46,353 nt of DNA from a virus (taxonomy: Duplodnaviria > Heunggongvirae > Uroviricota > Caudoviricetes): the IMG/VR virus record IMGVR_UViG_2711768010_000018. One strand, 5' to 3'. Below are positions 2,794 through 31,874 of this stretch, one piece after another. A program made the translations under genes and the position numbers. Each line of letters begins with the position of its first letter. The first letter of the stretch is position 1. The notes below the pieces were generated by a model that saw only the letters and a program-made list of their open reading frames with translations, was not told the DNA's origin and did no database searches.

Positions 2794-5386
2794 TTGCATA
2801 TTCCTTAGCCCAGCGGGGCAGTGATAACGTCTTAATAGCTGGCCATTCATCGGTATTGAGGCAGTCAGCCAGGGTTCGCAGATTGCGGTGATATTCCAGC
2901 TGACCTGCCAGTTTTGCTTCTTCGCCCATCATGAAAATTTCAACCGGATAACGTCCGCATTCAATAGTTGTGCTGGCAACCAGAAAAACGAAAGTTGGCT
3001 GCACTCCAAACTGTGCTTCATAACCGTCACTGTAGAATGCATCCTGAACGTGATAGCGGTAGTCGTAATAAGCGGTTTTGAATCGTTGAATATCCGCCGT
3101 AGTTTTCACGTCCATGATCCAGTGAAATTCAGGGATAATTTTGTCCGGACGGCACCGACACAAAATTGCTGTTTCAGGATCTTCCCAGTAAATTGATGAT
3201 TCAGCGTGTCCGGCGCTTTCAACAAGCCATTGCCCCAGCGGCAAAGCCATAACGCTCTGATACATGAGTTCAATTTTCCGGCCTTCTTCGGCAGTGATAA
3301 CCGTTTTTCCTGTGCTTGCGCATTCCCTCAGAAACGCTTTCTCTTCTTCTTTTCCGGAGTTTGTCCGGCGGTTAAATTCAGGTGCTACGATAAAGCGGTT
3401 ACTGAATTCTTCCGGCTCAAGTACCCGGCAGTGGAAAGCGGTTCCTAAATCGAGCGTTTTTGTCTTTGTGGTGTCCACGGGGGCATTTTTACGCCACAAA
3501 TACAGTGCCGGAGTATCAGCAATGTCATCGAGCTGAGACTTACTGACACCGGGACCCGCGTGGTAATTCTCATTCGAAATTCCGTAATAAATACCTGGCT
3601 CTATGTCTTCTACGATTACGGGATCTGCGACTTCGCCAGTTTCATCACTGCAATCGCGATGCGGATCGCTGCCAGCATTCTCATTGTGCGGATGTTCAGC
3701 GCCTTCCATTTCCTCCGGATCATTTTCCTTAGCTTCAACCTGACTCTCTTCATCGAATGTTTCCTGGTATGTTGCGTCGCCCATCACCGCACCACAGTCA
3801 GGGCAGTTATCCCCGCCAGTCTGGCCGCAGGCATTGCAGGCTATTTCCGGTTCCTGTTGCACTACTGGCTCAGGTTGATTCATATCCGGGCTGGTTTTTT
3901 CCGTTTCTGGCTGGTTCTGGTACACACAATCGCGAGTCTGGATCCCCTTTACCCATTTCGGATCGTTCGGGTCGCTAATTCCGTCAACAAATTCACCACG
4001 TGATGCAGCAAGCAATTTATCGGCATCGACAGGATTTTTTGATGGAATGTTTTTCCGGGCTTCATGGAGTTCTGCCCGCAGTTCCTGATATTTCGCATCA
4101 ACAGAATTTACCTGTGACTGAGCATCCAGCGGCTGCGTGTCCTGATGATGTTCAGTTGCGTCCGGTTCCATTGTTTCAGCCTCTCCCTGTTCAACTGCCG
4201 TTGTTCCAGATGGTTGCGGTTTTTCTTCATCATCCTGTTTTCCTTCTTCTGTTACTCGCTGCGGCATCGGGGCAGAGGAGCGACCGCAGGCAATATCCAC
4301 GATTTCCGGATCAGGGTTGGCATGATCGGTTTCAGTCAGTACTTTGTTCAGATATTCAGTGACGTGCGCGGGGATGACCTCGATCCCAATTGGTGCTTCT
4401 TTTACGGACGCAACCACGATGGCGCGGGAATAATCCAGCCCGCCAGGCATGGTGATGAATTTGTCGCGGAAAACAGAAAAGGGCGGTTTATTTTCAGCGA
4501 TAATTTCCTCAATGCGTTTAGCGTGTGCCGGATGAAGGTTATAGATGTCCAGATCCATTGAACGGGCCAGTACGCCAGTGGCTACGTCCCGCGCCAGTGA
4601 CGTCAGATCGTGTACGAAACCTTCGCCGCGATCGGTGAGGTTTCCGCCGCCAGCATTAGCACCGGAAGCCGTGCGAGTGATGTGTGAAACACGATTACCC
4701 TTCATCCACTCTTTTGTCAGCAGTCCTCGATCGGTGTAGTCAGCGTTCAGGTATGCTTCGAAAAAAGCAGTTATCAGTCCCAGGTTTGAATTACCAGGAT
4801 TAGGGAAAACTTTGTCAGTGTCACGAACCAGTTTGTGGAGTTCGCGAATTTCCAGCGGGTCGAGCAGGCTGGTTTTGTGGGAAACAGCCAGGGCAGTAAC
4901 AGCCGGTAGTTCTTCAGCCCGAGCAATGTGTAATGCCTGGAGTCCGTCGCGTGAAACGTGCGTTACCGGTTTTTCGCTGCCGTGTTGAGCAAGCCAACGA
5001 ATGGGCAGTTCCTGGCCAGAAATTGGGAGTAGCATATTCTCCTCAATCTCAGGCATGTCTTCGCCGTTGACGTTGGTATTGCCTTGATAGTGAGCGTTGT
5101 CTGGTGCTGCTCCCGGTTTTAGTTCCCATGTCATGGAGTCTTTGCTGAGTTGATAGCGTTCACTCCAGGTAAAATCGATCTCACCTTCAGCGGGCAGGTC
5201 ATTAACGACAGGAAAATTCGTGGCAACAGCTTTAAAATAGCTGCTCAGTTTTTTACCTGACTTAACGATCAGGTAGTCCAGAGTGGCACAGGTCGATTCA
5301 AAATCGTTGCTTGCCCACAGGACGACGTCAGGTTCACCGGATGATTTTTTCGCTTTCCGTAACAGGAAGAGTGGTTTTGTGCTCAT
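2786..5386 (-). CDS. recE: RecE exonuclease VIII, 866 aa
   Basis: 866 aa ORF with ATG at 5384-5386, immediately upstream of recT on the same strand; length and C-terminal nuclease region consistent with RecE. Confidence 0.92.
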
Positions 5387-16308: not shown

Positions 16309-16598
16309 TGGTGAATTTACGTAAAGCGGCTAAAGGCCAGATGTGCCAGATCAGAATCCCTGGCTACTGCAATCACAATCCCGAAACCTCTGTGCTGGCG
16401 CATTACAGGCTGGCGGGGACGTGCGGAACAGCGACAAAACCACATGATATGCAGGCGGCGATAGCCTGTAGCTCATGCCACGATCTAATCGACGGGCGGG
16501 TAAAAACCAGCGATTACACCAAAGAAGAATTGCGCCTGATGCATGCTGAAGGGGTTTTTCGCACACAAGAAATCTGGAGAAAGAAAGGTCATTTATGA
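16308..16598 (+). CDS. YbcO-like (DUF1364) putative zinc-binding nuclease, 96 aa
   Basis: Sequence MVNLRKAAKGQMCQIRIPGYCNHNPETSVLAHYRL...CSSCHD closely resembles DLP12 YbcO as I recall it; conserved Cys/His cluster. Confidence 0.7.
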   Translation: MVNLRKAAKGQMCQIRIPGYCNHNPETSVLAHYRLAGTCGTATKPHDMQAAIACSSCHDLIDGRVKTSDYTKEELRLMHAEGVFRTQEIWRKKGHL

Positions 16599-17137
16599 TT
16601 TACCCAACGAATACAGGAAAAAGCGGAGAACACCTTCGCCTCACCACGCTGGAAAGTGTCTGGATTCAGGGAAAACTACGTATGTGGGGGCGCTGGTCGT
16701 ATATTGGCGGTGGCAGGTCAGGGAATATGTTCAATCAGTTGTTGGCATCCAAAAAACTGACGAAAACAGCCATTAATGAAGCCCTGCGCAGAATGAAAAA
16801 AGCGGGAATAGAGAAAGCTGAGCTGGAAGCGTTTTTGCGAGAGATGATCAACGGCAAGCAAAAGAGCTGGCTGGCGCATTGTACTGATGCAGAGGCGTTA
16901 TGTATTGATCGAGTCATAAGTGAGGTGCTGGCAGAGCATCCAGGATTGATTTGCATTCTCCGGCAACGCTATGAAGGGCGGGGGATGACTAAGCGCAAAA
17001 TGGCTGAATTGCTAAATGATGCACACCCAGAGTGGTGTTTTAGCACATGCGAAAAACGGATTGCTAATTGGTTAGCTGTTGCTGAGTATGCCCTATATAT
17101 TCCCATGCGTGAATCATTTGCTGAGAAAATGGCTTGA
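16595..17137 (+). CDS. Putative late-gene antiterminator Q (Cys-pair zinc-finger-like), 180 aa
   Basis: Last gene before the lysis region; overlapping start with the upstream gene; Cys pairs (HCTDAEALC and EWCFSTCEKR). Assignment is by position; the sequence is not recognised with certainty. Confidence 0.45.
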   Translation: MIYPTNTGKSGEHLRLTTLESVWIQGKLRMWGRWSYIGGGRSGNMFNQLLASKKLTKTAINEALRRMKKAGIEKAELEAFLREMINGKQKSWLAHCTDAEALCIDRVISEVLAEHPGLICILRQRYEGRGMTKRKMAELLNDAHPEWCFSTCEKRIANWLAVAEYALYIPMRESFAEKMA

Positions 17138-17217
17138 TTTCTTACGTATAAACTGCTTCAATTTTGCTATGCTTCGCAAAGCTGTATCGCGAGGCGGATT
17201 GCAGACATGGACATCGT

Positions 17218-17246
17218 AAAAAAACCGCTTAATGCGGTTTTTTTAC
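17218..17246 (+). terminator. Rho-independent terminator about 80 bp downstream of the putative Q gene (candidate tR' analogue)
   Basis: Stem AAACCGC (17222-17228), loop TTAAT, stem GCGGTTT (17234-17240), followed by a T-run; A-run upstream makes it potentially bidirectional. Confidence 0.6.
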
Positions 17247-17564
17247 GTCAGGAAAGCAGGGGAGAATGCTGCTAGTTGGGCAACTGGTCTTTCTGCTCCA
17301 AATTATAACAGAGACCAGTTATAGTTTCGGTGCTGTGTTTTTTTTACAATATTGTGATAACACATTGCTGGCGGGAGTTTTGATATTTCTTGGCAGGGGC
17401 TGATGATGCGTTATCCTGATGTCGTCAACTCATATAAAATGAGATGAGAGATCATTGCAGGGTGGTTTGTAATTCGCTGTTTAGCGGGACAATATGTTGT
17501 CTGATACAAGACACCCGACGCCTCAGATTACTATAATAAAGACGAAGCATCCTTTGTATTGACC

Positions 17565-17590
17565 AACCGCCTGTTTAGGCGGTTCTTTTT
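17565..17590 (+). terminator. Terminator-like hairpin in the Q-to-lysis intergenic region
   Basis: Stem AACCGCC (17565-17571) / GGCGGTT (17578-17584) followed by CTTTTT. Confidence 0.4.
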
Positions 17591-18122
17591 GGGCTGGTTT
17601 ATTGTATGCCAAATGATTATTAAAAAGGTTGTGTTAATAACAAGATCCGAAATAATATGCCTGCATATTTTTATCTTGCTTATATTCTGCATATTGTGCA
17701 TAGCAGGCTCATCCCTGCAATCAAAACTGTATGATGAGTATTTTTTGTTTTCCTTTTTTCCAGTCATCTGATGATGACCTGCTTCTTTTTAATCCGGATC
17801 GACATCAGTTTTTTAAGATAATTCCTGCGAGTTATATGCATAAATGCCACAAACTCCGCATTTTATGTGGTTGGGAGTTGCCGGGCGCGCAGTGAGTTTG
17901 CTAAGAAAACTCCTGCATGGTGAATCCCCCTGTGCGGTGGGGTGATACCATTAACCTTTTCTGTCGCCGACAGGTATCACGAACATTTTGTTCACCGGGA
18001 GGCACCCGGCACCATGCACTTCAATAGATTCTCTCCACATTATGGATATTCTTTCAGAATATCCCACGCAGACTTTGTGTAAATGTTAACAAATGTGCGT
18101 TTTATTTGATCTGATTCGCTGT

Positions 18123-18152
18123 TTGAGCGTCCAAAACAACGGTATATATAAT
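18123..18152 (+). promoter_or_regulatory. Sigma70-like promoter upstream of lipoprotein gene 1
   Basis: -35 TTGAGC (18123-18128), 18 bp spacer, -10 TATAAT (18147-18152), about 30 bp upstream of the RBS and ATG at 18182. Confidence 0.45.
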
Positions 18153-18181
18153 CCTTTACTATATGACATATGTGAGGAAAA

Positions 18182-18610
18182 ATGGGTTTTCGTAGCGCAT
18201 CAATTCTTACGTTGATTATTAGTGGGATTATTATCGGGTGCACTGATGCTGTATCGACAAATTATCATGACCGTACATCATATTACTCCGATAAAGCAAT
18301 AGAGACACAGTATGTGAGTTCATCTGAACGTACTTCTGATGTTAGTGAGGATATCCGTCTGTATGCCCATCAAATCAAGAGCGCCATCGAAAAACAGTTC
18401 GGGGATGCGAGTAAGTATTCAGGAAAAGAGTGTACACTGAGAATGCATATGGCCCCGAATGGCCTTCTACTGGAGGTTAAAAGAGAAAGTGGAGACCTCG
18501 ATTTATGTCGTGAAGCGATGAATGCGATAAAGAATGCTGATATACCTGCCCCCCCTTCGCCGGAAGTATATAAAGTATTTCAAAATGGGGTGCTGGATTT
18601 TAAACCCTGA
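18182..18610 (+). CDS. Lipoprotein with a TolA C-terminal (domain III)-like domain, 142 aa
   Basis: Signal peptide with lipobox IIGC; C-terminal 80 aa (IKSAIEKQFGDASKYSGKECTLRMHMAPNGLLLEVKRESGDLDLCREAMNAIKNADIPAPPSPEVYKVFQNGVLDFKP) closely resembles my recollection of E. coli TolA domain III (IKSAIESKFYDASSYAGKTCTLRIKLAPDGMLLDIKPEGGDPALCQAA...VYEVFKNAPLDFKP). Confidence 0.7.
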   Translation: MGFRSASILTLIISGIIIGCTDAVSTNYHDRTSYYSDKAIETQYVSSSERTSDVSEDIRLYAHQIKSAIEKQFGDASKYSGKECTLRMHMAPNGLLLEVKRESGDLDLCREAMNAIKNADIPAPPSPEVYKVFQNGVLDFKP

Positions 18611-18760
18611 TATTTATTGTTTTGTAATAAACGGTTTCGGCTTAGGTTTGTTCTGACACAGCTACGGCACTGAGCTAAATTTAGCGGATAGTCAGCTCTG
18701 AGCCAGTGGCGGACGTAACAACTACTATTGCTGAGATTTTAATGGATTGAGGAGCAAGAA

Positions 18761-19156
18761 GTGGGATTAAAGAAAATCGTTATGTTGACTTTTTGGGTCG
18801 GTTTTGTTGCGGGATGCACACCTTTACACCCTTCAGATTGCCACAAAACTACTGCTACAGGTAGTTGCAGTTCAGGACGCTGGGATGATCAGGATGAATG
18901 GGGGGCGCAAGCGCGGGGAATCAGAGCTGCAATTAATGCCAAACTTGATGAGCCGCATAACTGGAAAGGGAAAAAATGCAGGTTGCATATGGAATTCTCT
19001 CAGGATGGCACGGCGTTAAAAATATCTACCAGTAACGGTGATAAAGCCTATTGCGAAGCGATAAAGTCCGCAGCTCATAAAGCCAAATTTCCGGCCTTCA
19101 ACAATCCGGAAGTCTACAGAGATTTTCAGAAATCTGGCTTTGACATGCGAGGTTAG
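18761..19156 (+). CDS. Second, more divergent TolA-domain-III-like lipoprotein, 131 aa (GTG start)
   Basis: Lipobox VAGC; shares the K.CRLHMEF...G.AL...C.AIKSAA...PEVYRDFQ pattern with the upstream paralogue. Confidence 0.6.
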   Translation: MGLKKIVMLTFWVGFVAGCTPLHPSDCHKTTATGSCSSGRWDDQDEWGAQARGIRAAINAKLDEPHNWKGKKCRLHMEFSQDGTALKISTSNGDKAYCEAIKSAAHKAKFPAFNNPEVYRDFQKSGFDMRG

Positions 19157-19282
19157 CTCTTCAATTACTATATCTCATTCATAGCAAACTGACAGATTTG
19201 ATGATGTTCTATATACGAAACCTGTGATGTCAAGTCTGAGCTAATACAAATAAACATAATATCAGAGAAATACATTTTATTA

Positions 19283-19306
19283 GCTCGCTACGGCGAGCTT
19301 TTTATA
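19283..19306 (+). terminator. Rho-independent terminator about 100 bp upstream of the holin gene
   Basis: Stem AGCTCGC (19283-19289), loop TACG, stem GCGAGCT (19294-19300), then TTTTT. Confidence 0.55.
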
Positions 19307-19407
19307 TTGCATCGTCTCCAGCATATATATCAATTAAGGCTCTGATTGATGTGTCTGAAAGCCTACACATAATAACTATGCCATCCGTTCCGTGCGGAGG
19401 TGAGGCT

Positions 19408-19623
19408 ATGAAATCCATGGACAAAATTTCAACAGGCATTGCCTACGGCACCTCCGCAGGCAGTGCTGGCTACTGGTTTTTACAGTTGCTCGATAGAGTA
19501 ACTCCGTCACAGTGGGCTGCAATCGGTGTGCTGGGTAGTCTGGTATTTGGCCTGCTGACGTACCTGACAAACCTTTATTTCAAGATTAAAGAAGATAAGC
19601 GCAAGGCTGCGAGAGGTGAATAA
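19408..19623 (+). CDS. Phage-21-type pinholin S with dual-start motif (MKSM...), 71 aa
   Basis: ORF track 19351..19623 begins at GTG; the internal ATG at 19408 follows a GGAGGTGAGG RBS and gives a sequence nearly identical to S21 as I recall it ([26 protein letters not shown]...KAARGE); stop overlaps the endolysin start. Confidence 0.85.
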
Positions 19624-20170
19624 TGCCTCCATCATTACGAAAAGTCGTTGCTGCTGCTATTGGTGGCGGAGCAATTGCTATAGCATCAGTGTTAATCACT
19701 GGCCCAAGTGGTAACGATGGTCTGGAAGGTGTCAGCTACATACCATACAAAGATATTGTTGGTGTATGGACTGTATGTCACGGGCATACAGGAAAAGACA
19801 TCATGCTCGGTAAAACGTATACCGAAGCAGNNNNNNNNNNNNNNNNNNNNNNNNNNNNNNNNNNNNNNNNNNNNNNNNNNNATGCAAAACACTCTTGAAT
19901 AAAGACCTTGCCACTGTCGCCAGACAAATTAACCCGTACATCAAAGTCGATATACCGGAAACAACGCGCGGCGCTCTTTACTCATTCGTTTACAACGTGG
20001 GTGCTGGCAATTTCAGAACATCGACGCTTCTTCGCAAAATAAACCAGGGCGATATCAAAGGCGCATGTGACCAGCTACGTCGCTGGACATATGCTGGCGG
20101 TAAGCAATGGAAAGGTCTCATGACTCGTCGTGAGATTGAGCGTGAAATCTGTTTGTGGGGTCAGCAATGA
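19623..20170 (+). CDS. SAR endolysin (phage-21 R-type lysozyme), interrupted by a 51-N run at 19831-19881
   Basis: N-terminal SAR segment ([18 protein letters not shown]), then lysozyme-like sequence; the two track ORFs (19623..19898 and 19895..20170) are the two halves of one gene split by the N-run. Confidence 0.8.
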
Positions 20171-20631: not shown

Positions 20632-20768
20632 AATCTTAACTACAATATGATTCATTTTGATGATTGTTTCATAAGGAACAGTGAAGTAAGATCTAAGAGG
20701 AGTTAAATTTTATACAGTATAATCATAATATTGCAGCAAGGTGGTTATAATTGAAAGAATATTTAGAT

Positions 20769-22226
20769 ATGAATACATCTCATGTAAGAGTTGTTACTCA
20801 TATGTGTGGGTTCCTGGTTTGGCTCTATAGTCTTTCAATGTTGCCACCAATGGTTGTAGCATTGTTTTATAAAGAAAAAAGCCTGTTCGTTTTCTTTATA
20901 ACTTTCGTTATATTTTTTTGCATTGGTGGCGGAGCGTGGTATACAACTAAGAAATCTGGCATTCAATTACGTACCCGTGATGGGTTTATTATAATTGTAA
21001 TGTTTTGGATTTTGTTTTCTGTTATTAGTGCATTCCCTTTATGGATTGACTCAGAACTTAATTTAACGTTCATTGATGCTCTGTTTGAAGGGGTTTCTGG
21101 AATAACAACAACAGGAGCAACTGTAATTGATGATGTTAGTTCATTACCTCGGGCATATTTGTACTATCGGTCACAGTTAAATTTTATAGGTGGTTTAGGA
21201 GTTATTGTTCTGGCGGTTGCAGTATTGCCATTATTGGGTATTGGTGGTGCAAAGCTTTATCAGTCAGAAATGCCGGGGCCATTTAAGGATGACAAACTCA
21301 CTCCCCGCCTGGCCGATACGTCACGGACACTGTGGATAACTTATTCTTTATTAGGTATTGCTTGTATTGTCTGTTATAGACTTGCAGGAATGCCTTTGTT
21401 TGATGCTATTTGTCACGGGATTTCCACAGTTTCGCTTGGTGGTTTCTCAACTCATAGCGAGAGTATCGGATATTTTAATAACTATTTGGTTGAGCTGGTG
21501 GCTGGTTCTTTTTCCCTGCTATCGGCTTTCAACTTCACTCTTTGGTATATTGTTATTAGCAGAAAAACGATAAAACCTTTAATCAGAGATATTGAACTTC
21601 GTTTCTTTCTGTTAATAGCCTTAGGGGTGATCATTGTTACCTCTTTCCAGGTCTGGCATATAGGTATGTATGACTTGCATGGAAGTTTTATTCATTCGTT
21701 TTTTCTTGCCAGCTCCATGCTCACTGATAATGGTTTAGCTACGCAGGATTATGCAAACTGGCCCACGCACACGATAGTGTTTTTGCTGTTGTCAAGTTTC
21801 TTTGGGGGATGTATAGGTTCAACCTGTGGTGGAATTAAGTCACTTCGATTTCTTATACTTTTCAAACAAAGCAAACACGAGATAAATCAGCTTTCTCATC
21901 CCAGAGCGTTGTTGAGTGTAAATGTAGGAGGGAAGATAGTTACAGATCGTGTAATGAGGTCTGTATGGAGTTTCTTTTTTCTTTATACTCTCTTCACGGT
22001 GTTTTTTATACTGGTGTTAAATGGTATGGGATATGATTTTCTTACATCATTTGCAACAGTGGCTGCATGTATTAATAATATGGGATTAGGTTTTGGGGCT
22101 ACTGCATCGTCATTCGGAGTGCTTAATGACATTGCAAAATATTTAATGTGCATAGCTATGATTCTTGGTCGCCTTGAAATTTATCCTGTTATTATATTGT
22201 TTTCAGGTTTTTTTTGGCGCTCCTAA
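20769..22226 (+). CDS. trkG: TrkG potassium uptake transmembrane protein (TrkH/TrkG family), about 485 aa from MNTSHVRVVTHM...
   Basis: Polytopic membrane protein; AT-rich moron between the lysis and packaging modules, as in Rac; ORF track 20751..22226 with the internal Met at 20769 matching the recalled TrkG N-terminus. Confidence 0.88.
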   Translation: MNTSHVRVVTHMCGFLVWLYSLSMLPPMVVALFYKEKSLFVFFITFVIFFCIGGGAWYTTKKSGIQLRTRDGFIIIVMFWILFSVISAFPLWIDSELNLTFIDALFEGVSGITTTGATVIDDVSSLPRAYLYYRSQLNFIGGLGVIVLAVAVLPLLGIGGAKLYQSEMPGPFKDDKLTPRLADTSRTLWITYSLLGIACIVCYRLAGMPLFDAICHGISTVSLGGFSTHSESIGYFNNYLVELVAGSFSLLSAFNFTLWYIVISRKTIKPLIRDIELRFFLLIALGVIIVTSFQVWHIGMYDLHGSFIHSFFLASSMLTDNGLATQDYANWPTHTIVFLLLSSFFGGCIGSTCGGIKSLRFLILFKQSKHEINQLSHPRALLSVNVGGKIVTDRVMRSVWSFFFLYTLFTVFFILVLNGMGYDFLTSFATVAACINNMGLGFGATASSFGVLNDIAKYLMCIAMILGRLEIYPVIILFSGFFWRS

Positions 22227-31478: not shown

Positions 31479-31874
31479 ATGATCACTTACGTGACCTGTG
31501 ATGACGTTGATAATGCGTTTGGGAACGCCTGGACGAGTGAGAACGCTAAAAATAAAGCTGTTTTAATGGCTAATGCCTGGCTTAATGGCTTCAACCTGAA
31601 AATTAACCCATCCCGTATTCCGGAAGAGGTAAAACTTGCGGGAGCATATGCAGCCAGAATTGCCTCATTCGGTAAGTTGTTTCAGCAGAAAAATGATTCT
31701 GGCGTTGTTATCAGTAAAGCCGTGTCGGCTGACGGGGTCAGTGTATCGAAATCATTTTCTGAGTTGCCAGCAAACAGCACTGCATTGCTTGAACCCGATT
31801 TACAGCTTGCGATAGCACTGCTGAAACCGTACGGACTTAGTCGCTCACAAGTCAGGGTTGTGAGGGGGGGATAA
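31479..31874 (+). CDS. Head-tail connector / head completion protein, 131 aa
   Basis: Position in a tightly packed series of four roughly 130 aa genes between capsid and major tail genes. Confidence 0.5.
   Translation: MITYVTCDDVDNAFGNAWTSENAKNKAVLMANAWLNGFNLKINPSRIPEEVKLAGAYAARIASFGKLFQQKNDSGVVISKAVSADGVSVSKSFSELPANSTALLEPDLQLAIALLKPYGLSRSQVRVVRGG

Follow-up and report, generated by a model that had tools for sequence, protein, structure and literature searches.

The DNA analysed here, a 46,353-nucleotide Caudoviricetes sequence (IMG/VR record IMGVR_UViG_2711768010_000018; hereafter referred to as the window), contains a lambdoid prophage region of E. coli, and the segment that leads from a Q-like antiterminator gene to the holin gene is probably the late-gene switch of this Rac-type prophage. 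Sequence comparisons suggest that the Q-like gene product, a 180-amino-acid DUF1133 protein, is a relative of the antiterminator Q21 of phage 21, and that its gene is directly followed by a predicted late promoter (pR'), a pause element and a terminator (equivalent to tR'), behind which a slot for exchangeable cargo precedes the lysis genes. The layout of this late region is in itself ordinary and corresponds to a textbook arrangement. A first-pass annotation had likened it to the Q-pR'-tR'-moron-S order of Stx phages, with two lipoprotein genes in the moron slot; this comparison is strengthened by the homology to Q21, by the presence of a promoter-pause-terminator unit after 39 of 41 DUF1133 genes, and by the finding of a variable cargo slot in which the lipoprotein block, together with its terminator, moves as a unit between phages with unrelated Q proteins. 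What is added here is the probable assignment of DUF1133 to a Q21-like lineage with a defined unit of promoter, pause element and terminator, a proposed pairing of the protein's recognition helix with a promoter-spacer hexamer, an STnc100 small-RNA element, and the proposed boundaries of the cargo module. All coordinates from the Q-like gene to the holin gene refer to the plus strand of the window.

The DUF1133 protein as a remote homologue of Q21

The gene at 16595..17137 encodes a protein that matches its own family, Pfam PF06576 (DUF1133), with 356 bits and PHROG 753, described as 'anti-termination protein Q-like', with an E-value of 2e-79. In a search of the PDB with the single 180-residue sequence, Q21 came out on top, weakly (E 0.27), and a profile constructed from 10 homologues (32% to 86% identical) matches Q21 (PDB 6P18/6JNX) over nearly the whole length with an E-value of 1.3e-7. 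The profile match spans Q21 residues 6-46 and 57-151, and it thus takes in the N-terminal part of the protein as well as the helix-turn-helix. When an AlphaFold model was searched against the PDB with Foldseek, the top 10 matches were all Q21 chains (TM 0.50-0.67 by target), and the next match had an E-value of 2.3; the model is of low confidence (mean pLDDT 55.7) and was used for the ranking of matches only, with no structural detail being taken from it. Pfam PF06530 (Phage_antitermQ) is matched with 26.1 bits at a cut-off of 26, a borderline pass. Together, these sequence and fold matches support a remote homology between the 180-amino-acid DUF1133 protein and the antiterminator of phage 21.

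An experimentally studied member of the family may already exist. AntQ of the Salmonella prophage Gifsy-1 interferes with transcription termination in experiments, an effect that is global and can be rescued by Rho (PMC4825925). AntQ apparently belongs to the DUF1133 family, since isrK, its neighbour in Gifsy-1, is found at the Salmonella locus L016 directly 3' of a DUF1133 gene whose product shares 82-84% identity with that of the window.

Predicted promoter, pause element and terminator directly downstream of the Q-like gene

DUF1133 loci were gathered from annotated phages and from 38 genomes of different species, which yielded 41 distinct loci, and a first alignment revealed conserved blocks across E. 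coli, Klebsiella, Providencia and Edwardsiella. A compound motif consisting of TTGnnn, 16-18 nt, TwnnnT, 3-8 nt and TAnGnT is present at 39 of the 41 loci, in 37 cases at most 60 nt from the stop codon, and accompanies Q proteins whose identity ranges from 31% to 99%; its background rate, counted over all fetched DNA and on both strands, is one per 14.7 kb. In the window, the predicted -35 hexamer TTGATT (17134..17139) overlaps the TGA stop codon of the Q-like gene, and its TTGnnn pattern is kept at 39 of the 41 loci. It is separated by a 17-nt spacer from a predicted extended -10 element, TGC-TTCAAT (17154..17162), which conforms to a TGC-TT(C/G/A)AAT sequence conserved in the E. coli, Klebsiella and Enterobacter types. 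Five nucleotides after the -10 element follows the -10-like sequence TATGCT (17168..17173), a predicted sigma-dependent pause element at about -1 to +5; its general form, TAnGnT, is found 3-8 nt (mostly 5 nt) 3' of the -10 element at 39 of the 41 loci. The only other match to the compound motif in the window (31636-31678) is without Q context and is probably due to chance.

It should be noted that terminator-like and promoter-like patterns are not enriched across the region as classes (7 found versus 5.7 +/- 2.2 expected, and 17 versus 16.6, respectively), and each individual site therefore needs its own support from a folding z-score or from conservation. For the terminator directly after the Q-like gene this support is strong. 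The intrinsic terminator at 17215..17247 has a folding energy of -19.7 kcal/mol with a z-score of -8.2, and 0 of 200 shuffled sequences folded as well. The fold of 17212-17250 consists of a 14-bp hairpin (17215-17228 paired with 17234-17247) with the GC core ACCGC/GCGGT, a run of seven A on its 5' side and a run of seven T on its 3' side. This hairpin begins 78 nt past the stop codon at 17137, so that the strong terminator which had been placed about 80 bp after Q, in the position of tR', stands. A simple terminator scan did not list it, in our opinion because the T-run pairs with the upstream A-run. Using a strict perfect-stem test, a GC hairpin with a T-run was found 32-79 nt after the pause element at 29 of the 39 motif-carrying loci, with stems that differ between loci, and imperfect terminator hairpins are visible at most of the others.

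Judged from the geometry of the promoter, transcription would start at about 17169 and, when ended at the terminator, would yield a leader RNA of about 76-78 nt (17169..17246). This predicted RNA folds into a 5' hairpin (17171-17197) and the terminator, with an energy of -30.4 kcal/mol and a z-score of -4.0. The leaders of about 37 distinct loci differ in sequence, and most of them form a hairpin beginning at the GCT of the pause element; the stem reads GCUUCGC/GCGAGGC in the window and GCUCGG/CUGAGC in the Klebsiella type. Such a hairpin could represent a feature of the loading site that is conserved at the RNA or DNA level.

Which part of this unit stays with the Q-like gene was addressed with 80 viral contigs encoding a Q protein at least 93% identical to that of the window. 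Homology to the window is lost at 17190-17199, i.e., after the leader hairpin and before the terminator, in 42 of them, while the remaining breakpoints lie at about 17240 (3 contigs) and about 17290 (6 contigs), and 27 contigs are collinear to the end of the fetched DNA. Since the breakpoints cluster at 17190-17199, the unit that remains with Q would consist of the promoter and the first ~30 transcribed bases. This is the span expected of a Q-loading site, and terminators and cargo thus appear to be exchangeable.

A candidate Q-binding element and its predicted recognition helix

In phage 21, the Q21 site is a direct repeat of TGAGCA positioned between the -35 and -10 elements and is read by helix H6 (A124, T125, R127); the helix of Q21 itself reads ATCRRE (PMC6606751). 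The profile alignment sets residues S150-R155 (STCEKR) of the window protein on this H6 helix, and across the DUF1133 loci changes in the six helix residues go along with changes in a hexamer that lies in the upstream half of the spacer. The helix STCEKR of the window and its close relatives is accompanied by TTACGY, RTCE(S/T/N)R by TTGCGCG, the Enterobacter-type helix (I/M)TCRRR by TGAGCA or TGAGCC, the Providencia helix RTYQDR by TT(A/G)CCG, and the helix STCRRR of the Providencia loci L041 and L044 by TGAACA. The proteins of the latter two loci are 68% identical to that of Providencia L007 and only 46% identical to the Enterobacter-type TCRRR protein of L024; owing to this divergence, the pairing of TCRRR with TGA(G/A)CA recurs in separate backgrounds, Q21 being a further one. 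At the Pantoea locus L020, where 579 nt separate the unit from Q and the leader is of the E. coli type, the hexamer TTGCGCG nevertheless matches the RTCESR helix, which argues against simple co-inheritance. A scan of viral contigs gave only close relatives (at least 93% identical) and hence added no diversity to this comparison; these contigs served for the breakpoint analysis. With good but indirect support from this co-variation, the sequence TTACGT at 17142..17147, in the upstream half of the promoter spacer, is a candidate Q-binding site.

The proposed late switch and alternative explanations

We suggest that the region operates as follows. The DUF1133 protein would act as a Q21-like antiterminator on a constitutive sigma-70 promoter that overlaps the stop codon of its own gene (-35 at 17134-39, extended -10 at 17154-62) and starts transcription at about 17169. 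Sigma would re-bind the -10-like TATGCT (17168-73), causing RNA polymerase to pause a few bases further downstream. In the absence of Q, transcription would stop at the terminator at 17215-47 and leave a leader RNA of about 77 nt. On induction, Q would bind to the spacer DNA (candidate TTACGT, 17142-47) and be loaded onto the paused polymerase, which would thereby become resistant to terminators. The modified enzyme could then pass its own terminator, a hairpin at 17565, the end of STnc100 and a further terminator at 19282, and the read-through would reach the holin, lysozyme and spanin genes. Located between the switch and the lysis genes would be a cargo slot, filled in the window with a lineage-specific spacer of 644 bp and a mobile module. 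This proposal builds on direct observations, namely homologies, conserved signals, hairpins and mosaic boundaries.

We have weighed this late-switch model against three other explanations. The unit after the Q-like gene could be a stand-alone gene for an IsrK-like small RNA that is unrelated to late control, with the late promoter located elsewhere. The predicted RNA indeed has the size and position of IsrK and matches the Rfam model of isrK (RF01394) weakly but end to end (21.6 bits, E 0.26), and short RNAs terminated after pR' can be regulators themselves, as is known for StxS (PMC7547250). However, the match is below the gathering score of 50, and genuine isrK, present with 67-81 bits at L012 and L016, overlaps c4-a1b1 of a P1-like immunity module and has no -10-like element visible after its promoter. 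As the true isrK belongs to such a P1-like c4/antirepressor block, with no pause element seen after its promoter, we have rejected the leader as an isrK homologue. In addition, L016 carries a unit of the window type further down, after the antirepressor-like open reading frame (ORF), the spacer hexamer tracks the helix of the Q protein, and the DNA just before the holin gene also occurs in a phage with an unrelated Q and can therefore not be the Q-specific site. We consider a small-RNA gene without a late function unlikely; a small-RNA role and a late-control role are not mutually exclusive.

It has likewise to be considered that the DUF1133 protein might be a DNA-binding activator that resembles sigma region 4 and stimulates the promoter without acting on elongating polymerase, the terminator merely ending the early operon. 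The fold of Q21 does resemble sigma region 4 (10.1101/651190, PMC6606751), and the candidate binding site lies inside a promoter. Yet a strong terminator no more than about 80 nt past a promoter makes sense only if something overcomes it, the conserved -10-like element at about +1 is a mark of Q loading, the homology includes the N-terminal part of Q21 in addition to the helix-turn-helix, and AntQ, apparently a DUF1133 protein (82-84% identity), disturbs termination globally, an effect rescued by Rho (PMC4825925). These properties make a simple activator very unlikely. The lysis genes could also be driven by a separate promoter located between the lipoprotein genes and the holin gene, with the well-formed terminator at 19282 serving as an insulator; a weak promoter-like site with 9/12 matches is present at 19346-19373. 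Promoter-like sites occur in the region at the rate expected by chance (17 versus 16.6), though, one and the same pre-holin segment is used by phages whose Q proteins are of two unrelated types, and at the Klebsiella locus L026 the order is Q, unit, STnc100 and holin with nothing else between them. A promoter of this kind is, in our assessment, highly improbable.

There are also points that speak against the late-switch model proposed here. The AlphaFold model of the 180-residue protein is poor (mean pLDDT 55.7), and the match to PF06530 barely reaches its cut-off (26.1 versus 26). No clear second copy of TTACGT is present in the window, whereas the Q21 site is a direct repeat of two hexamers. 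The promoter adjoins the Q gene, so that the association between helix and hexamer could in part reflect joint inheritance rather than function. The compound motif was written after the alignment had been viewed, and its enrichment is therefore partly circular; its conservation down to a protein identity of 31% is not. Two of the 41 loci are without the motif. L012 is one of these; it is a degraded prophage with an ORF resembling an insertion-sequence transposase (a resemblance not checked against a protein family) and is as such uninformative as a motif-lacking locus. For the prophage of the window, start site, pausing and read-through are predicted, and the binding of Q is, like these three, inferred from the sequence data.

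Cargo slot and lineage-specific spacer

Directly behind the promoter/terminator unit, other phages have different cargo, and this position thus represents a variable slot. It is occupied by tRNAs at loci L003, L011, L014 and L018, a gene for a hypothetical protein of 189 amino acids at L009, the pertussis-like toxin pair eplBA in Rac-SA53, and STnc100 alone, directly before the holin gene, in Klebsiella L026. At the Salmonella locus L016, the interval between Q and the unit of the window type is taken up by a block comprising isrK, a C4 RNA and an ORF6N antirepressor-like gene. This block (4088-4985; Salmonella enterica strain s1), in which isrK overlaps Rfam c4-a1b1 and is followed by the C4 antisense RNA and the ORF6N antirepressor-like gene, resembles the P1 immI module; a second copy of isrK and C4 is present at 790-976 of the same locus.

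In the window, the stretch that leads from the Q-like gene to the first lipoprotein gene had been described in the first-pass annotation as roughly 900 bp of AT-rich DNA without convincing genes. Part of this description holds, as no recognised protein gene is present: in the identical prophage of strain LD39-1, RefSeq has annotated no gene between the DUF1133 gene and the first lipoprotein gene, and the largest ORFs of the stretch have no match in Pfam or PHROG. However, the stretch is only moderately AT-rich (GC content of 0.36-0.42 versus 0.46-0.53 in the upstream genes), and it contains an STnc100 element (see below). The 644-bp spacer that extends from the first terminator to STnc100 carries no annotation and is confined to this prophage lineage; 463 of 5,426 genomes contain it, and 451 of these 463 matching records show at least 99% identity. 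A 70-codon ORF with a TTG start codon lies within it (17559-17771) and would encode a very hydrophobic product; there is no family match, no RefSeq annotation and no sequence variation that could be used to judge whether it is coding.

Two further structures that had been pointed out in this spacer are both present, and neither is strong. The 9-bp inverted repeat AACTGGTCT/AGACCAGTT (17282..17320) is real but modest (-13.1, z -3.0, with 1 of 200 shuffled sequences folding as well). The hairpin reported at 17565-17590 exists (17565-17584 followed by a T-run, listed as terminator-like), but it is weak, with a z-score of only -1.9 in its context. It belongs to a segment (17508..17594) in which the pattern scan detected the promoter-like sequence AAGACA-18-TATAAT and, about 30 nt later, the terminator-like hairpin. 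Positions 17509-17590 are 76% identical to 4856-4937 of the E. ruysiae locus L011, which has a different cargo; stem and flanks are kept there, the loop is changed and the -10 element is lost. The segment at 17508-17594 may be a small transcription unit or small RNA, or the remnant of one. That it is a decayed second copy of STnc100 is unsupported, as no Rfam match was obtained even at an E-value of 10.

The STnc100 element

STnc100 (Rfam RF02076) occupies 17885..18071 and matches the full model (positions 1-206) with 86.6 bits at a gathering score of 47. It is an Hfq-associated prophage RNA related to PasD (10.64898/2026.05.13.724894), and its position in Stx2 phages is 75 nt past stx2B (PMC12370729). 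To judge by the mosaic boundaries described below, STnc100 is the 5' end of the mobile cargo module. It is regularly encountered between Q and holin, where it occurs with cargo (window, mEp460) or alone directly before the holin gene (Klebsiella spallanzanii); outside the window, its coordinates are 4239-4430 in L026 and 2891-3081 in L002. The last hairpin of STnc100 lacks the U-run of the family consensus in the window, and STnc100 may therefore not terminate transcription here. An origin of STnc100 as an RNA derived from pR' was rejected, since in the window it lies ~640 nt past the terminator and moves with the cargo, and in phage mEp460_ev081 it is found ~1.1 kb after Q and beyond two tRNAs.

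TolA-like lipoproteins and the mobile module

Both genes that had been read as lipoprotein genes proved to be TolA-related and to encode a lipobox. Lipoprotein gene 1 (18182..18610) is preceded by a promoter-like site, TTGAGC-18-TATAAT (18123..18152), which is a mere consensus match (10/12) located 30 nt 5' of the gene. Its product matches the Pfam family TolA C-terminal (PF06519) with 82.6 bits (cut-off 25) and PHROG 5772, which has no assigned function; its residues 55-142, 88 residues that extend to the C-terminus, match residues 334-421 (domain III) of E. coli TolA with an E-value of 5e-28. Lipoprotein gene 2 (18761..19156), with GAGGAG before its GTG start codon, encodes a diverged paralogue (29% identical to lipoprotein 1) that matches PF06519 with 54.6 bits at the same cut-off and likewise belongs to PHROG 5772. 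The signal sequences end in the lipoboxes ...GIIIGC/TD and ...GFVAGC/TP, as read by inspection from the translations. By the usual rule, Thr at position +2 after the lipobox Cys stands for sorting to the outer membrane; the Thr at +2 in both lipoproteins suggests this location for them.

The 3' end of the module is formed by an intrinsic terminator at 19282..19306 (-13.0 kcal/mol, z -4.2), located about 100 nt upstream of the holin start codon (ATG at 19408). Of the 7 base pairs in its stem (19282-19299), 5 are G-C, and the sequence TTTTTAT follows the stem. The hairpin and T-run that had been noticed just upstream of the holin gene are thus real, but the sequence comparisons indicate that they are part of the cargo module and not a control element of the holin gene. 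Phage mEp460_ev081 matches the window from 17894 onwards with 97% identity (17894-19420 in a sensitive alignment; a megablast match reaches 19624), although its Q protein is of the lambda type (PF03589), unrelated to DUF1133, and is followed by two tRNAs. Phages that have the same holin but are devoid of the lipoproteins are similar to the window only from about 19393. These two boundaries indicate that STnc100, lipoproteins 1 and 2 and the terminator at 19282 form one mobile block of about 1.5 kb. The module, from 17894 to about 19393, hence occurs behind two unrelated types of Q, and other phages that have the Q or the holin of the window do not carry it. Among 80 viral contigs that encode lipoprotein 1, and counting those with at least 1.7 kb of upstream DNA, about 39 have the context of the window and about 28 that of mEp460, and STnc100 precedes the gene for lipoprotein 1 in all three contigs that were checked with Rfam. 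With respect to what characterizes a moron, the module has sharp presence/absence boundaries and a well-supported terminator; its promoter is only a 10/12 consensus match. With its promoter-like site and its terminator, the module could also be expressed in the lysogen.

As to what these proteins may do, domain III of TolA is the docking surface for the g3p protein of filamentous phages, for colicin A and for TolB, and g3p as well as group A colicins such as colicin A have to seize it for entry into the cell (PMC7391070). A literature search found no paper on TolA-like lipoproteins of prophages. We tentatively raise the possibility, plausible but on present sequence evidence less likely than not, that the two lipoproteins are outer-membrane decoys that display a captured TolA domain III. 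If this were true, a lysogen would soak up incoming g3p or group A colicin just inside the outer membrane and would become tolerant.

Prophage setting

The stretch of 3.1 kb from the Q-like gene to the holin gene is 100% identical in strain LD39-1 and others, and at least 80% of it was found in 447 of 5,426 complete E. coli genomes. The order of genes is DUF1367, DUF1364/YbcO, DUF1133, about 1 kb of unannotated DNA, two genes annotated as "TolA", the holin gene essD, lysozyme, Rz and trkG. RalA is the antitoxin of the ralR/ralA system of Rac; a full-length match to the RalA antitoxin RNA (225 bits) is located at 1557-1735 and, together with trkG, marks the prophage, as far as sequence markers can tell, as Rac-type, like the phage records Rac and Rac-SA53. 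The potassium-transporter gene trkG (20751-22226) directly follows the lysis cassette, as it does in the phage records vB_EcoS-683R6 and 673R7, and represents a second cargo gene, downstream of Rz.

The first late gene encodes a holin of the phage 21 S type (19408..19623; Pfam PF04971, 120.9 bits) and is followed by the lysozyme and Rz genes. In the window, the lysozyme gene is broken by a run of 51 N (19831-19881), which is probably an assembly gap or a masked stretch; the identical prophage of LD39-1 is continuous there. LD39-1 has an IS2 element about 44 bp downstream of the position of the N-run. A masked IS2 copy as the cause of the N-run was ruled out by the continuous LD39-1 sequence and by the location of IS2 further downstream.

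Comparison with known late regions

Among proteins of solved structure, Q21 (PDB 6P18, 6JNX) is the nearest relative of the 180-amino-acid protein. The phage 21 promoter pR'21 has its binding site between the -35 and -10 elements, followed by a -10-like pause element and a terminator, as predicted for the window, and those DUF1133 members with a TCRRR helix carry the Q21 subsite TGAGCA. In contrast to Q21, with which identity is only about 15%, DUF1133 proteins are longer and are without most of the long loop between the two DNA-binding helices of Q21, and the hexamer of the window is TTACGT, with no clear direct repeat seen. The order of parts is the same as in lambda (Q, pR', 6S RNA, tR', S), and so is the geometry of the promoter and pause element: the lambda record has TTGACT, 17 nt, TAAATT, 6 nt and AACGAT where the window has TTGATT, 17 nt, TTCAAT, 5 nt and TATGCT. 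Lambda Q (PF03589) is, however, unrelated in sequence, the lambda leader measures about 190 nt versus about 77 nt in the window, and lambda pR' begins 43 nt past the stop codon of Q, whereas the -35 hexamer of the window overlaps the stop codon.

The predicted leader of the window is the counterpart of the lambda 6S RNA and of StxS, the short terminated RNA that Stx2 phages produce from an always-active pR' (PMC7547250). The late region of Stx2 phages has the order Q, pR', StxS/tR', tRNAs, stx2AB, STnc100, nanS-p and S, with cargo between tR' and the holin gene and STnc100 in the same interval as in the window (PMC12370729); the position of STnc100 after stx2B directly ties the layout of the window to the Stx arrangement. 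Stx2 phages differ in the family of their Q protein and in their cargo, which is a toxin instead of TolA-like lipoproteins. The antQ-isrK-orf45-anrP region of Gifsy-1 (PMC4825925) apparently has the same Q family and shares the upstream genes DUF1367 and DUF1364; unlike the Salmonella locus L016, the window is without the isrK/C4/antirepressor-like block, and its leader is not a member of the isrK family. The LT-IIa prophage Rac-SA53 (KU052037) is likewise Rac-type, with a DUF1133 'q' that is 75% identical, the same promoter and pause motif and the same cargo slot; its eplBA cargo, its holin and its leader type are different.

Implications for DUF1133-carrying prophages

Prophages of E. coli, Salmonella, Klebsiella and related genera frequently encode DUF1133 proteins, most of which are annotated only as "DUF1133 family protein". 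These proteins can now be assigned a predicted cognate late promoter, pause element and terminator. An interval between Q and holin that lacks annotated genes can hold a known small-RNA element, and the cargo of the window is a host-derived TolA domain. The proposed relationship between six residues of a helix and a DNA hexamer is a simple, testable link that is anchored on the solved Q21 complex; it would allow one to predict which prophages are able to switch on each other's late genes, among them toxin cargo like the pertussis-like toxin in Rac-SA53.

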